A DNA stretch of 31,174 nt, from positions 1-31,174 of the forward strand of contig JBKJZQ010000129.1 in NCBI GenBank assembly GCA_046715095.1, in the 5' to 3' direction. Numbering within the stretch: the stretch's first letter is position 1; the number at the start of each line of letters is the position of its first letter. Position numbers and translations under genes: made by a program. Below are positions 1,090 to 23,962 of this stretch, piece by piece. The notes under the pieces were generated by a model. That model saw only the letters and a program-made list of their open reading frames with translations. It searched no databases and had not been told where the DNA came from. The stretch comes from Actinomycetota bacterium (GTDB lineage: Bacteria; Actinomycetota; CADDZG01; WHSQ01).

Positions 1090-1090
<1 letters not shown>
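1049..1090 (+). CDS. putative 13-aa basic mini-[16 protein letters not shown] coupled to ilvB
   Basis: GGGGGAG 5 nt before ATG1049; its TGA overlaps the ilvB ATG (TGATG). Confidence 0.35.
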
Positions 1091-2843
<1,753 letters not shown>

Positions 2844-2847
<4 letters not shown>

Positions 2848-2903
2848 GCGAGTCAGAGCTCACCATCCCGAGCGCCACACCCGCCGCGAAAGGGAAAGCA
2901 TGA
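2844..2903 (+). repeat. 56-nt MIRU-like intergenic element carrying a 19-aa bridge ORF (copy 1)
   Basis: atgagcgagtca...cacacccgccgcgaaagggaaagc|atga. ATGA overlaps the ilvB stop and the ilvN start. 43/56 identical, ungapped, to the copy at 23611-23666. Confidence 0.8.
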
Positions 2904-3493
2904 GCGAGATTACGACGCACACGATCTCTGTCCTGGTCGAGAACCGTCCCGGTGCCCTGGCGCGGGTCTCCGGGTTGTTCGCCAGGCGGGGCTACAACAT
3001 CGATTCGCTCGCCGTCGGAGAGACCGAAGATCGCACGATCTCCCGGATGACGATCGTTGTCTCGGTCGAAGGGAAGCCTCTCGAGCAGGTCACTAAACAG
3101 CTCCACAAGCTCGTGAGCGTTCTACGCATCGCCGAGCTTCCCCATGACGCATCCATTGAGCGCGAGCTGGCGCTGATAAAGGTCGGGGTCGACGCCGGGA
3201 GACGCGCCGAGGTGCTCGAGATCGTCGAGATCTTCCGCGCCAAGGTCGTCGACGTCGACGCCGGCGCACTGACGGTTGAAGCCACCGGCACCCCCGACAA
3301 GGTCGCGGCCCTCGAGGAGCTGCTCCGGCCCTACGGGATCGTCGAGATGGCCCGCACCGGAACCGTTGCGCTAGGCCGCGGCTCGATCGGACTCAAAGCG
3401 CCGAAGCTCCGACCGGTCTCGATCGAAGATCGATCCCGAGATCGAGGGATCCGTGAGCAGACGGGTGAAGCGATGTTTGGTCACGGATCCTGA
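2900..3493 (+). CDS. ilvN: acetolactate synthase, small regulatory subunit
   Basis: ISVLVENRPGALARVSGLFARRGYNIDSL ACT domain. Start placed at ATG2900 (after AGGGAAAGC) rather than the ORF-track 2816. Confidence 0.96.
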   Translation: MSEITTHTISVLVENRPGALARVSGLFARRGYNIDSLAVGETEDRTISRMTIVVSVEGKPLEQVTKQLHKLVSVLRIAELPHDASIERELALIKVGVDAGRRAEVLEIVEIFRAKVVDVDAGALTVEATGTPDKVAALEELLRPYGIVEMARTGTVALGRGSIGLKAPKLRPVSIEDRSRDRGIREQTGEAMFGHGS

Positions 3494-21160: not shown

Positions 21161-22204
21161 TCAGGCGAACAGGGTGAGGAACCGGTCGATCCCGAGGTTC
21201 CCTCCGGAGACGACGACCCCAACCTTTTGTCTTGCGTCTCGTCGAGACGACCCGCTTAGTCTTGCGTCTCGTCGAGACGACCCGCTTAGTCTCGCGTCCC
21301 GTCGAGACGACCCGCTCCTTCTTCCGGCGACGTCGACCTTTCCGGCCAGGATCGCAGCGAGGGCCGCGGCACCGGAAGGTTCGGCAACGGTCTTCATCCG
21401 TTCGAAGAGGAATGCCATTGCTCCGACGATCTCGGCATCGCTTACGAGGACGATGTCGTCCACCTTCGCCTTGATCACCTCGAAGGTGATCTCGCCGGGC
21501 GTCTCCACCTGTTGCCCGTCGGCGATCGTGCGCGGGACGTCGATCGACACCCGGTGACCGGCTTGAAGGGACCGCTTCGTGTCGTCTCCGGCTTCTGGTT
21601 CGACTCCGATAACCGAAGTGGACCTCGAAAGAGAGCGAGCCACCGTCGCGCACCCCGAGATCAGCCCGCCTCCTCCGACGGGAACGACCAGGATGTCGAG
21701 GTCGGGAACCTCCTCGAGCATCTCCAGGGCAACCGTTCCCTGCCCGGCGATGATGGTCGGATCGTCGTAGGGATGGATAAGGGTGAGGCCCCGTTCCTCC
21801 GCCAGCCTGTTCCCCAGTTCGGTCCGGTTCTCTCTGTACCGGTTGTACGTGATCACCTCGGCCCCGTATCCGTGCGTGGCGGCGAGCTTGACCTCGGGAG
21901 CGTCCTCCGGCATCAGGATCGTCGCGGTCGTACCGGCTATCCGGGCCGACAGCGCCACGGCCTGGGCGTGGTTGCCGGACGAGAAGGTGGTAACCCCTCG
22001 GCCCAGTTCCTCGGGGGACAGCGTCGATATCTTGTTGAACGCCCCTCTGAACTTGAACGCTCCACAACGCTGCAGGTTCTCGGCCTTCAGGAACAGATGC
22101 GCACCGACTGCCTCGTCGAGCGCTGTCGATGTGAGTAGGGGAGTCCGGTGGGCGACGCCGTCCAGCCGACGCGACGCGTCGCGGACGTCCTCCAGCTCGA
22201 TCAC
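21161..22204 (-). CDS. PLP-dependent threonine/serine dehydratase-family enzyme (hydroxyaspartate ammonia-lyase/serine racemase-like, no ACT domain) with a ~30-aa repeat insertion
   Basis: KAENLQRCGAFKFRGA (PLP lysine), SSGNHAQ, VPVGGGGLISG, EPSGA and VVSGGN motifs. Confidence 0.9.
   Translation of the reverse strand: MIELEDVRDASRRLDGVAHRTPLLTSTALDEAVGAHLFLKAENLQRCGAFKFRGAFNKISTLSPEELGRGVTTFSSGNHAQAVALSARIAGTTATILMPEDAPEVKLAATHGYGAEVITYNRYRENRTELGNRLAEERGLTLIHPYDDPTIIAGQGTVALEMLEEVPDLDILVVPVGGGGLISGCATVARSLSRSTSVIGVEPEAGDDTKRSLQAGHRVSIDVPRTIADGQQVETPGEITFEVIKAKVDDIVLVSDAEIVGAMAFLFERMKTVAEPSGAAALAAILAGKVDVAGRRSGSSRRDARLSGSSRRDARLSGSSRRDARQKVGVVVSGGNLGIDRFLTLFA
21229..21316. repeat. three tandem 30-nt palindrome-containing units, in frame within the dehydratase gene
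   Basis: Unit gtcttgcgtctcgtcgagacgacccgctta (two exact copies, third with 2 substitutions); core cgtctcg-t-cgagacg; encodes (SGSSRRDARL)x3. Confidence 0.95.
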
Positions 22205-22207
22205 GGT

Positions 22208-22711
22208 TTAAACGGGCTTGAACTGTTCGAAGGGGTTGCGGCAGTCGGCGCAGTAATAGAGGGCGCGGCATGGGGTCGGGCCGAACGGGTTCTCGTTCTG
22301 GGTGTTGGTGCTGCCGCAGAACGGACATGTCGCCACCTGGGGAAGGCCGATCTGGGTGATGAGCACCTGCTCTCCGTCCGCCGGAGGAGCGAGTCCGAAA
22401 TCCTTCAGCTTCCTGCGGCCATCCTCGGTGATCCTTGCGGTGGTCCAGGGAGGGCTGAACGTGGTCTCCACCGAGGCCTCCTCGATCCCATCGACCGCCT
22501 CGACCGCGGCCCTGACATCGGAGACGATCATCGAGATCGCCGGACACCCACTGAAGGTGGGAAGCACGATGATGCTGGCGTGAGCGCCGTCCGTGGTGAC
22601 CTTTTCGATCATGCCCATTTCGACCACGGACACCGCCGGGATCTCGGGATCGGGAACTCCGGCGAGGGCGTCCCAGATCGCGTCCTCGAGGACCCGCGTC
22701 GGAGCTACCAC
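22208..22711 (-). CDS. paaD: phenylacetyl-CoA 1,2-epoxidase subunit D
   Basis: VPDPEIPAVSVVEMG, PTFSGCPA, PPWTT, GLAPP, CPFCGS and CRALYYCADCRNPFEQFK motifs. Confidence 0.93.
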   Translation of the reverse strand: MVAPTRVLEDAIWDALAGVPDPEIPAVSVVEMGMIEKVTTDGAHASIIVLPTFSGCPAISMIVSDVRAAVEAVDGIEEASVETTFSPPWTTARITEDGRRKLKDFGLAPPADGEQVLITQIGLPQVATCPFCGSTNTQNENPFGPTPCRALYYCADCRNPFEQFKPV

Positions 22712-23553
22712 GATGCACCCGGATTGGCCCGGTAGGTCGACGTCATCTCATCCCACAAGGGGGTGAAGCTGTCCGAATGACGGCCCGCTCGGCCCCCGAG
22801 GCCTACGGTGGGAGCCCCGGTCCCGGCCGAACCGTTCTGATCCTGCGCCGCACCTTCGATCAGATCCCCCGATGAGGACGCGACGAACTCGGCGGCGCGG
22901 TCGTCGACCGCCCGGACCTCGGTCGGCAGGCCCATCCCGTCGAGGGCCTCGGCCGCCTTGGTGACGAACCTGGACCTCATCTCTTCGGAGGGAACGGGAA
23001 GCCACCCGGCTTCGACCGCGGCGTCCTCGAGCTCGAGCGGCTCGAAGATCCCGGTCGCGTCGGTGAACGCCTCGGACATTGAATCGATCAAGCGTGCGCG
23101 GCCTTCGACCGGCCCCTTCGAAACGCGCTGGAGCCAGGAGTCCGCGTGCAGCAGGTGGTAGCGCTCTTCCCGGCGGAGCTTGGTCGCGATCGCACTCAGC
23201 TCTTCGTGCGATGAGCTTTCGAGCGCCTCGAGCCGGATGTCATCGGCATGGTCGTAGAGCCAGTGCCGCGCAAGCGTGTACGCCCAGTTCCCGTTGGGGC
23301 GCTCGCAGATGAGCGCGTTCCGGTACTCGGACGGCTCGCGCCCCAGCGCGATGTGGTCCGGCTCGTCGCCGGTGAGCTTCGCTATCAGCGAGTAGAACGC
23401 GGACGCGTGGCCGATCTCGTCCTGCGCGATCGAGGAGAACGCGACGTCCTCTTCGATATGAGGAGCGTGGCCCGTCCATTCCGAATGCCGGTGGCCGAGG
23501 ATCAGCTCGTCGTCGGCGAGGGCGGTCAGGAGAGAGATCAGCGGGGCGTTCAT
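22705..23553 (-). CDS. paaC: phenylacetyl-CoA 1,2-epoxidase subunit C
   Basis: LADDELILGHR.SEWTGHAPHIEED, QDEIGHA, EERYH and PGASW motifs. Start at ATG23553 (GAAGGGG Shine-Dalgarno); an in-frame alternative at 23610 lies inside the repeat. Confidence 0.93.
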   Translation of the reverse strand: MNAPLISLLTALADDELILGHRHSEWTGHAPHIEEDVAFSSIAQDEIGHASAFYSLIAKLTGDEPDHIALGREPSEYRNALICERPNGNWAYTLARHWLYDHADDIRLEALESSSHEELSAIATKLRREERYHLLHADSWLQRVSKGPVEGRARLIDSMSEAFTDATGIFEPLELEDAAVEAGWLPVPSEEMRSRFVTKAAEALDGMGLPTEVRAVDDRAAEFVASSSGDLIEGAAQDQNGSAGTGAPTVGLGGRAGRHSDSFTPLWDEMTSTYRANPGASW

Positions 23554-23666
23554 GCTGTCCCCTTCGCGGCGGGCGTGCTGCGCAGGCGCAGTGTGTTTTG
23601 ACTCGCTCATGCTGTTCCCTTCGCGGCGGGCGTGCTGCGCAGGTGGGTGTGTTTTGACTCGCTCAT
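23551..23666 (-). repeat. tandem pair of the MIRU-like element (56-nt and 57-nt units; copies 2 and 3)
   Basis: atgagcgagtcaaaacacac...ctgcgcagcacgcccgccgcgaaggg(a/g)acagc repeated twice. Unit A encodes MSESKHTHLRSTPAAKGTA with ATGA overlaps at both ends; unit B is in frame with paaC. Confidence 0.9.
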
Positions 23667-23962
23667 GTCTGGTGTTCGATCTCCCGAGCCCGCACGAGGG
23701 CCTTCTCGCGTTTCTGGATCACGTCGCGATAAGCGGAGGCGAACCGGTAGCTCTTGTCCGCGGCGATCTCGAGGATCGATTCGTCCTTGAACGAGTGCAC
23801 ATCGCTCCGGCGGACGACCCACAGATGGTCGCCCTCACGACGCCTCACGAAGCACTCCTTCGCCATCATCAAGGCCATGTCGGGATCCGGTGCGATCACC
23901 GCGCCGGCGTGCTCGAACGGGTCCTTGTGCCCCGAGCGTCGGAAGACCTCATAGATCTCCAT
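23663..23962 (-). CDS. paaB: phenylacetyl-CoA 1,2-epoxidase subunit B
   Basis: MEIYEVFRR, HAGAVIAPDPDMAL, RRREG..LWVVR and DKSYR motifs; start at 23962, not the ORF-track 24349. Confidence 0.92.
   Translation of the reverse strand: MEIYEVFRRSGHKDPFEHAGAVIAPDPDMALMMAKECFVRRREGDHLWVVRRSDVHSFKDESILEIAADKSYRFASAYRDVIQKREKALVRAREIEHQT

Follow-up and report, generated by a model that had tools for sequence, protein, structure and literature searches.

In the 31,174-nt stretch of actinobacterial DNA analysed here (contig JBKJZQ010000129.1 of the draft assembly GCA_046715095.1, positions 1 to 31,174; hereafter the window), the acetolactate synthase genes ilvB and ilvN are joined by a short unit with its own open reading frame (ORF), which starts with ATGA on the stop of ilvB and ends with ATGA on the start of ilvN. 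The question was what this unit is and how it came to lie between the two genes. Based on comparisons within the source genome and with its relatives, it was concluded that the ilvB-ilvN spacer is very probably one insertion of a genus-restricted, dispersed, minisatellite-like family of 56-57-nt units, which is built like the interspersed repetitive units of mycobacteria (MIRUs) and would have spread without a transposase.

The source draft genome (G000) was a metagenome-assembled genome (MAG) with a total length of 1.92 Mb, a completeness of 84% and a GC content of 65%, divided among 237 contigs. It was compared, among others, with four congeners (G001 to G004), and a sequence-only covariance model of the unit (R1) was used in the searches. 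The features of the ilvB-ilvN junction were as follows:

1090-2847, plus strand: ilvB, acetolactate synthase large subunit (from the ORF list; Pfam TPP_enzyme_N/M/C, E 1e-41 to 1e-53)
2842-2852, plus strand: left copy of the 11-nt direct repeat GCATGAGCGAG (the empty site of G004 holds this 11-mer once)
2844-2903, plus strand: repeat unit, 56 nt from ATG to ATG, a 19-codon relay ORF with ATGA at both ends (R1 61 bits; included in alignment A1)
2888-2898, plus strand: purine-rich, Shine-Dalgarno-like tract GAAAGGGAAAG (read from the sequence; putative function)
2898-2908, plus strand: right copy of the 11-nt direct repeat GCATGAGCGAG, which includes the ilvN start codon (from the sequence and the comparison with G004)
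2900-3493, plus strand: ilvN, acetolactate synthase small subunit, from the terminal ATG of the unit (Pfam ALS_ss_C and ACT_AHAS_ss)

The TGA stop of ilvB was part of the first ATGA of the unit (2844-2847). The 19-codon ORF with its stop occupied 2844-2903, and its own TGA (2901-2903) overlapped the ilvN ATG at 2900, the 56-nt spacing from ATG to ATG resulting in a frame shift of -1 per unit. The last base of the tract GAAAGGGAAAG, found at the 3' end of the unit, lay 1 nt before the ilvN ATG, and an equivalent GGGAAAG tract was conserved throughout the family. These boundaries confirmed a preliminary description of this DNA, in which a 56-nt ATGA-to-ATGA unit with a direct repeat at both ends had been noted: the unit was located at 2844-2903, with GCATGAGCGAG at both ends. 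No promoter or terminator motif was found in 2600-3100. Contigs of three independent soil metagenomes spanned ilvB, the unit and ilvN with 0 differences, hence the arrangement was not an assembly artefact. In the public DNA runs, inspected at the contig level, the filled ilvBN state was recorded in three and no empty allele was seen. The public runs placed the host organism in permafrost and soil.

The preliminary description had also pointed to a distant copy of the element on the opposite strand. The similarity of the ilvBN unit to positions 23607-23666 of the minus strand was reproduced (43/56 nt without gaps and 12/19 amino acids identical), with 0 chance matches to the ilvBN unit expected from shuffled sequences. 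The copy was not a single one, however, and belonged to a tandem pair, one unit 56 nt and the other 57 nt in length, that separates paaB from paaC:

23663-23961, minus strand: paaB, its stop overlapping the ATG of unit A (Pfam PaaB; start codon read from the sequence)
23607-23666, minus strand: unit A, the paaB-side member of the tandem, 56 nt, a relay ORF from the paaB stop to the ATG of unit B
23550-23610, minus strand: unit B, the paaC-side member of the tandem, 57 nt with one additional base, in frame with paaC; the ORF 22705-23610 begins here
22705-23553, minus strand: paaC, from the terminal ATG of unit B (Pfam PaaA_PaaC, E 5e-63)

The ATGs on the minus strand were located at 23666 (unit A), 23610 (unit B) and 23553 (paaC), and the paaB stop at 23663. 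Owing to the one extra base, the ATG of unit B reads into the paaC frame; judged by this frame, unit B may give paaC a 19-residue N-terminal extension, and gene callers probably set the paaC start at 23610. No inverted repeat was found inside the units.

Further, the source genome was searched for additional copies, a test named in the preliminary description, and these turned out to be numerous. An iterated nhmmer search converged on 21 units of 56-57 nt at 19 loci of G000, with E values from 3e-10 to 9e-18, and R1 matched 15, 14 and 2 units in the congeners G002, G004 and G003, respectively. The units of G000 aligned nearly gap-free with a mean column identity of 85% (alignment A1). Little or no variation was seen in the 12 nt at the 5' end, ATGAGCGAGTCA, and in a GCGA close to the 3' end, and the units closed with GGGAAAGC followed by ATGA. 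The 11-mer ATGAGCGAGTC was present 18 times in G000, 17 times within units, when permuted 11-mers occurred 0.8 times on average; the one extra ATGAGCGAGTC outside the units was all that was found of solo remnants in this genome. Of the 21 units, 17 had an uninterrupted ORF from ATG to TGA, and tandem pairs were observed at two junctions, paaB/paaC and pnp/pepR.

It had been expected that the copies would sit at stop/start overlaps in the sense orientation. The orientation was sense at all 19 loci (coin-toss P about 2e-6), and the overlap was found at most of them: the stop of an upstream long ORF overlapped the unit start at 16 loci (13 by ATGA, 2 by TGATG and 1 with a GA insertion), while three loci lay in 5' leaders. 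A long downstream ORF began at the last ATG of the unit or a few bases after it at 18 of the 19 loci, the exception being located at an operon end, where the unit had no terminal ATGA. Of the candidate ATGA junctions of G000, which numbered roughly 240, about 16 were occupied. According to Pfam, the flanks were ordinary, functionally unrelated operon pairs, namely pyrB/pyrC, gcvPA/gcvPB, korA/korB, pnp/pepR, mltG/aroE, two ABC permeases, a BKACE enzyme and a biotin carrier, cysH and a zinc-ribbon protein, as well as a set of a luciferase-like oxidoreductase, an M20 peptidase and a xanthine-dehydrogenase-like gene.

Parts of the unit were also seen within coding regions. At one locus (C43, L005:3073-3160) the unit was followed by a 3-codon mini-ORF, ATGAGCGAGTAA, the stop of which overlapped a third ATGAGCGAGTC. 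This third ATGAGCGAGTC was the start of the real gene (MSESPDL...), so that three nested copies of the unit 5' end were present, and the N-terminus of the gene seems to be derived from the repeat. At another locus (C139, L014:807-890) the upstream BKACE gene ended in 17 nt identical to the unit 3' end, and the C-terminus of the BKACE protein (…KGNT) was encoded by a partial unit.

Within the genomes searched, the family was limited to one genus. The congener G001, which was 97% complete in 3 contigs, held 0 units by R1. The family was not found by R1 in 82 genomes of 40 other genera of the same bacterial family, and no copies were detected by the same model in a 150-genome sample of the phylum. 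The 151 genomes of the Rhodococcus-containing family gave single, weak and partial R1 matches, the best with an E of 2.6e-4. The host lies outside that family, in agreement with the earlier assignment of the element to a non-mycobacterial lineage. An exact-pattern scan of one genome for each of 185,579 species revealed true copies only in MAGs of this genus, which came from different studies and were labelled Actinomycetota, Actinomycetes or Actinomycetales bacterium. Pattern matches in Rhodococcus, Patescibacteria, Pseudoalteromonas and others were rejected as chance ones, as only the specified bases fitted (25-33/60 to the consensus).

The comparison with the congeners allowed filled and empty states of the same junctions to be observed. 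It had been predicted that deletion of the unit restores a direct ilvB/ilvN overlap, and precisely such an ATGA overlap was present in G004, G003 and G001. The empty ilvBN site of G004 contained GCATGAGCGAG once and encoded the same ilvN N-terminus, MSEITTHT, as G000; this junction was exactly as the deletion of the unit predicts. Besides ilvB/ilvN, empty orthologues were found for 17 further sites, as had been anticipated. The paaB/paaC junction was empty, with a direct ATGA overlap, in all four congeners, with ATGAGCGA at each junction. Nine further loci of G000 were compared with the congeners, and both sites on contig C13 and the cysH site were empty in 4/4. Four sites in total (paaB/C, the two C13 sites and cysH) were thus empty in all four congeners, which favoured insertion in the G000 lineage. 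Conversely, seven sites that were filled in G002, G003 or G004 were empty in G000. Five sites were common to G000 and another genome, three of them shared with G002, one with G004 and one with a JAENWO MAG. Units were present at the pyrB/C and korA/B sites of G000 and of G004, a distant congener, but not at those of G002, a close one.

G002 was the closest species, with flanks 88-97% identical to those of G000. The length of the arrays differed between the two, being 2 units in G000 and 1.5 in G002 at pnp/pepR, and 1.3 and 2.3 units, respectively, at the junction of BKACE and BCCP. Orthologous units grouped by locus with 88-97% identity. Additionally, a subfamily starting with TCAAAGGTAGCC... 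was found at different loci in two species with 87-93% identity, which indicates that copies were spreading around the species split. At three sites filled in G000, internally deleted remnants were present in G002, in which the initial 11-13 nt of a unit were combined with 0-6 nt of the unit end:

15 nt: ilvBN remnant in G002 (L029), in frame with ilvN
11 nt: gcvP (gcvPA/PB) remnant in G002 (L075), a 4-codon ATGA-to-ATGA relay
17 nt: mltG/aroE remnant in G002 (L087), a 6-codon ATGA-to-ATGA relay

The N-termini of paaC and korB in G002 may be remnants as well.

Further observations were made at or near two of the junctions. At the cysH junction (C126, L011:3080-3160), empty in the four congeners, a GA insertion followed the ATGA of the unit, and ahead of the zinc-ribbon gene the unit's 3' end was in part tandemly duplicated over 23 nt, with GCCGCGATCGGGAACGA[G/A]TGAGC occurring twice. 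In G004 (C357, L089:2545-2660) two tandem units belonging to a diverged subfamily, ATGAGTGAGTCAACGC..., were located about 1 kb from the mltG/aroE junction, near but not at the site that was filled in G000.

The choice of targets was biased to sites already resembling the first 6-9 bases of the unit. At each of the 18 orthologous empty sites the insertion point coincided exactly with [A/G/T]TGA, and the bases with which the unit itself begins (ATGAGC, ATGAGCGA) were over-represented there. In a conservative count, for which each empty site was taken from the closest relative with a clean empty site, ATGA was followed by GC at 9-10 of the 18 sites, compared with 19% of about 200 unoccupied junctions of G000 (P 3e-3 to 7e-4), and by GCGA at 5-6 of the 18, compared with 3% of about 200 unoccupied junctions (P 2e-4 to 1e-5). 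The ATGA was preceded by GC at 6 of the first 13 empty sites, when 15% was expected. At the filled sites GC after ATGA was recorded in 16/18 cases, more often than at the empty ones, and at no fewer than two sites the codon after ATG differed between the filled and the empty orthologue, with a change towards the AGC of the unit. One of the insertions was 62 nt in length and comprised a full unit and the first 6 nt of the next one.

A change of the start codon itself was noticed in the leader of an amidohydrolase gene (C97, L008:3001-3060). The empty site had a TTG start, TTGAGCACG, in G003 and G004, and an ATG was present in the filled G000. The insertion at this locus may have upgraded the start codon of the gene.

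We proposed that the unit relays the coupling of downstream translation. A ribosome ending ilvB would stop on the ATGA of the unit and reinitiate there, a 19-codon throw-away peptide would be made, and after a stop on the second ATGA the ribosome would reinitiate on ilvN. One overlap would in this way be replaced by two, with a Shine-Dalgarno-like tract before the second, and the coupling would be relayed rather than broken at ilvN, paaC and other downstream genes. With the coupling relayed, an insertion would be nearly neutral and of low cost, and the peptide itself would not be what is selected. Overlaps of both the ATGA and the TGATG type are described to mediate termination-reinitiation (PMC6728339, PMC12548453).

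The mode of spread was modeled more cautiously. New copies might be formed by microhomology-guided copying or recombination, for example by template switching from another copy or array, and the targets would be start codons resembling the unit's own ends, with GC directly before ATGAGCGAG. Tandem gain, internal deletion and precise loss might occur by slippage or recombination between short direct repeats. Spread and turnover could then take place without any element-encoded transposase. Taken together, the 62-nt insert, the codon shifts and the target bias fit microhomology copying better than a fixed-end cut-and-paste process, although they do not prove it.

Several properties that would be expected of other kinds of element were investigated. 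A conserved RNA or DNA hairpin, or inverted repeats, were rejected, as no covariation was found and shuffled sequences folded equally well: the RNAalifold consensus was -1.85 kcal/mol with no covarying pair, eight units folded no better than shuffled sequence (z-scores from -1.9 to +1.5), and the 5-bp stem GCTCA...TGAGC was no better than shuffles. Terminal inverted repeats were absent, the ends ATGAGCGAGTCA and GGGAAAGCATGA not being complementary. A check for a linked transposase or HUH nuclease, suggested in the preliminary description, gave a negative result for the Y1/HUH type (PF01797) in the five genomes G000 to G004, other enzyme families not having been screened; 6 of 14 control genomes were positive. 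Codon-position entropy and a low synonymous fraction both spoke against selection on the 19-residue peptide. The third codon position was the least variable one across the relay ORFs and the synonymous fraction was 0.17 instead of the expected 0.26, and there is no sign of selection on the peptide.

The architecture was then compared with that of known repeats. In the passages devoted to them in PMC12548453 and PMC3184786, and going back to Supply et al. (1997, Mol Microbiol 26:991), MIRUs are 40-100-bp units with small ORFs that overlap the adjacent genes and with variable tandem arrays. The passage in PMC12548453, citing Supply et al. 1997, gives start codons as their insertion sites, the coupling overlap being -4. 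Filled and empty MIRU sites bear 4-nt direct repeats, and the units have imperfect terminal and internal inverted repeats (PMC3184786). The present family has in common with MIRUs the 40-100-bp size, tens of dispersed copies, the sense orientation in operons, a small ORF with ends overlapping the flanking stop and start by -4 (ATGA), the insertion at start codons, the 4-nt direct repeats, the variable tandem arrays and the lack of a known transposase. It differs in its host, which belongs to an uncultured soil and permafrost actinobacterial genus of a different family, and in the inverted repeats, which are reported for MIRUs and were not present in this unit. No sequence relation beyond the single, weak and partial matches was detected by R1 in the 151 genomes of the Rhodococcus-containing family, a comparison in which the MIRU consensus was not directly aligned. 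A bias to the unit's own first 6-9 nt, as recorded here, was not found reported for MIRUs.

No description of a non-mycobacterial MIRU-like family was found in literature searches. As for the preliminary proposal of an undescribed non-autonomous family, the family proved to be real and spread over the genome, whereas "non-autonomous" was an assumption and "undescribed" is to be understood as negative literature searches only. On the whole, the observation of a MIRU-like element was confirmed and its interpretation was supported.

REP and REPIN elements have in common with the present family that they are short, abundant, extragenic, non-coding-sized repeats of narrow lineages. They are, however, palindromic hairpins that bear no set relation to start codons, and they are linked to RAYT (IS200/IS605-like Y1) transposases, whereas the present family has no hairpin and no PF01797 match in the five genomes. 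Miniature inverted-repeat transposable elements (MITEs), such as the ERIC/IRU and Correia-type ones, are small non-autonomous repeats, often co-transcribed with their neighbours, for which filled and empty sites are known. MITEs have terminal inverted repeats, make target duplications of a fixed length and insert in either orientation. The present family is likewise made of small repeats with filled and empty sites among relatives, but it has no inverted repeats, is strictly sense and carries a relay ORF.

It could also be assumed that the units were dispersed by an enzyme acting in trans. The element would then be a non-autonomous MITE- or REP-like one, moved by an enzyme that recognises ATGA or ATGAGC and duplicates it as a target-site duplication; the architecture would remain unchanged and the dispersal mechanism alone would differ. 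We regarded this as unlikely but worth serious attention. The ATGA was doubled at every filled site and single at every empty site, as for MIRUs (PMC3184786), the 5' ends of the units were sharply defined, and a copy number from 0 to at least 21 among congeners is what would be expected if the enzyme were present in some lineages only. However, the unit had neither terminal inverted repeats nor a supported hairpin (z from -1.9 to +1.5), and no Y1/HUH transposase was found in the five genomes, which were screened for this family of transposases and not for others. The junctions were uneven, as the 62-nt insert and the different codons after ATG in filled and empty sites demonstrated, and the target bias reached a likeness of 8-9 nt to the unit, which is more typical of homology-guided events.

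It is very improbable that selection has kept the units as leader or linker peptides with a function, or as regulatory upstream ORFs, for instance for tuning subunit stoichiometry. Such a role would agree with the 17 of 21 ORFs that were intact from ATG to TGA and with the many metabolic genes that the units precede. The substitutions, however, were opposite to those of purifying selection, with position 3 least variable and synonymous changes under-represented, and the presence or absence of the unit differed among close species at orthologous junctions of housekeeping operons. Tandem duplication, the in-frame fusion of unit B to paaC and the 11-17-nt remnants were tolerated, and the flanking genes had no common function. 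Finally, many high-GC actinobacterial genes start with ATGAGC and have a purine-rich sequence upstream, therefore a chance or convergent likeness of ribosome-binding sites and N-terminal codons, or else an artefact of metagenome assembly, had to be considered. This was practically excluded by the similarity over the full 56-60 nt (E 1e-10 to 1e-18, 21 units), by the 18 copies of ATGAGCGAGTC against an average of 0.8 for permuted 11-mers, by the identical ilvB-unit-ilvN contigs in three independent metagenomes and by the recurrence of the family in three other MAGs from different studies.

Some points weigh against an insertion of a MIRU-like unit that relays coupling and spreads by microhomology without a transposase. 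All genomes compared were MAGs, and the incompleteness of G000 makes the copy numbers lower bounds; a mobilising gene could be unassembled in this genome, given its 84% completeness and 237 contigs. The metagenome contigs that were used drop rare variants, which bears on polymorphism within the population. Gain and precise loss were polarised at each site by parsimony with no rooted species tree. The microhomology model is carried by 18 sites, for which the choice of the relative representing the ancestral target was partly a matter of judgement, and an equal bias would be produced by a trans-acting enzyme preferring ATGAGC. Translation and coupling were predicted from the sequence, and the sole RNA-library (metatranscriptome) contig, which covered 2877-3106, could be DNA carry-over.

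The origin and movement of MIRUs have been an open question since 1997. In the Mycobacterium tuberculosis complex most MIRU loci are old and fixed, which makes insertion hard to study. A cleaner natural experiment is offered by this narrow genus, in which the copy number per genome ranges from 0 to more than 21 and recent gains and losses at housekeeping junctions are many; it also has short relay-preserving remnants and a measurable target bias, the latter pointing to a homology-guided mechanism. Junctions that naturally hold 0, 1 or 2 units, or 4- and 6-codon mini-relays, can serve as a gauge of how far reinitiation tolerates inserted ORFs. We would tentatively suggest, as a possibility rather than an expectation, that MIRU-type elements are general, repeatedly evolved selfish DNA of high-GC soil bacteria, colonising start codons by means of termination-reinitiation and moving without a transposase by microhomology. 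If this were true, the movement would depend on microhomology of the first 6-9 bases of the unit (ATGAGCGAG, Met-Ser-Glu) with the start of the target gene, and rewritten N-termini of host proteins (MSES...) and altered start codons would be side effects. The units can add or rewrite N-terminal residues of host proteins, and gene callers will run ilvN, paaC and genes like them on across the unit or overlook where they really begin, which should be kept in mind in annotation.

Unrelated to the 56-nt family, three tandem 30-nt units were observed at 21226-21326 of the window, inside a long minus-strand ORF, each with the short palindrome CGTCTCG-T-CGAGACG.

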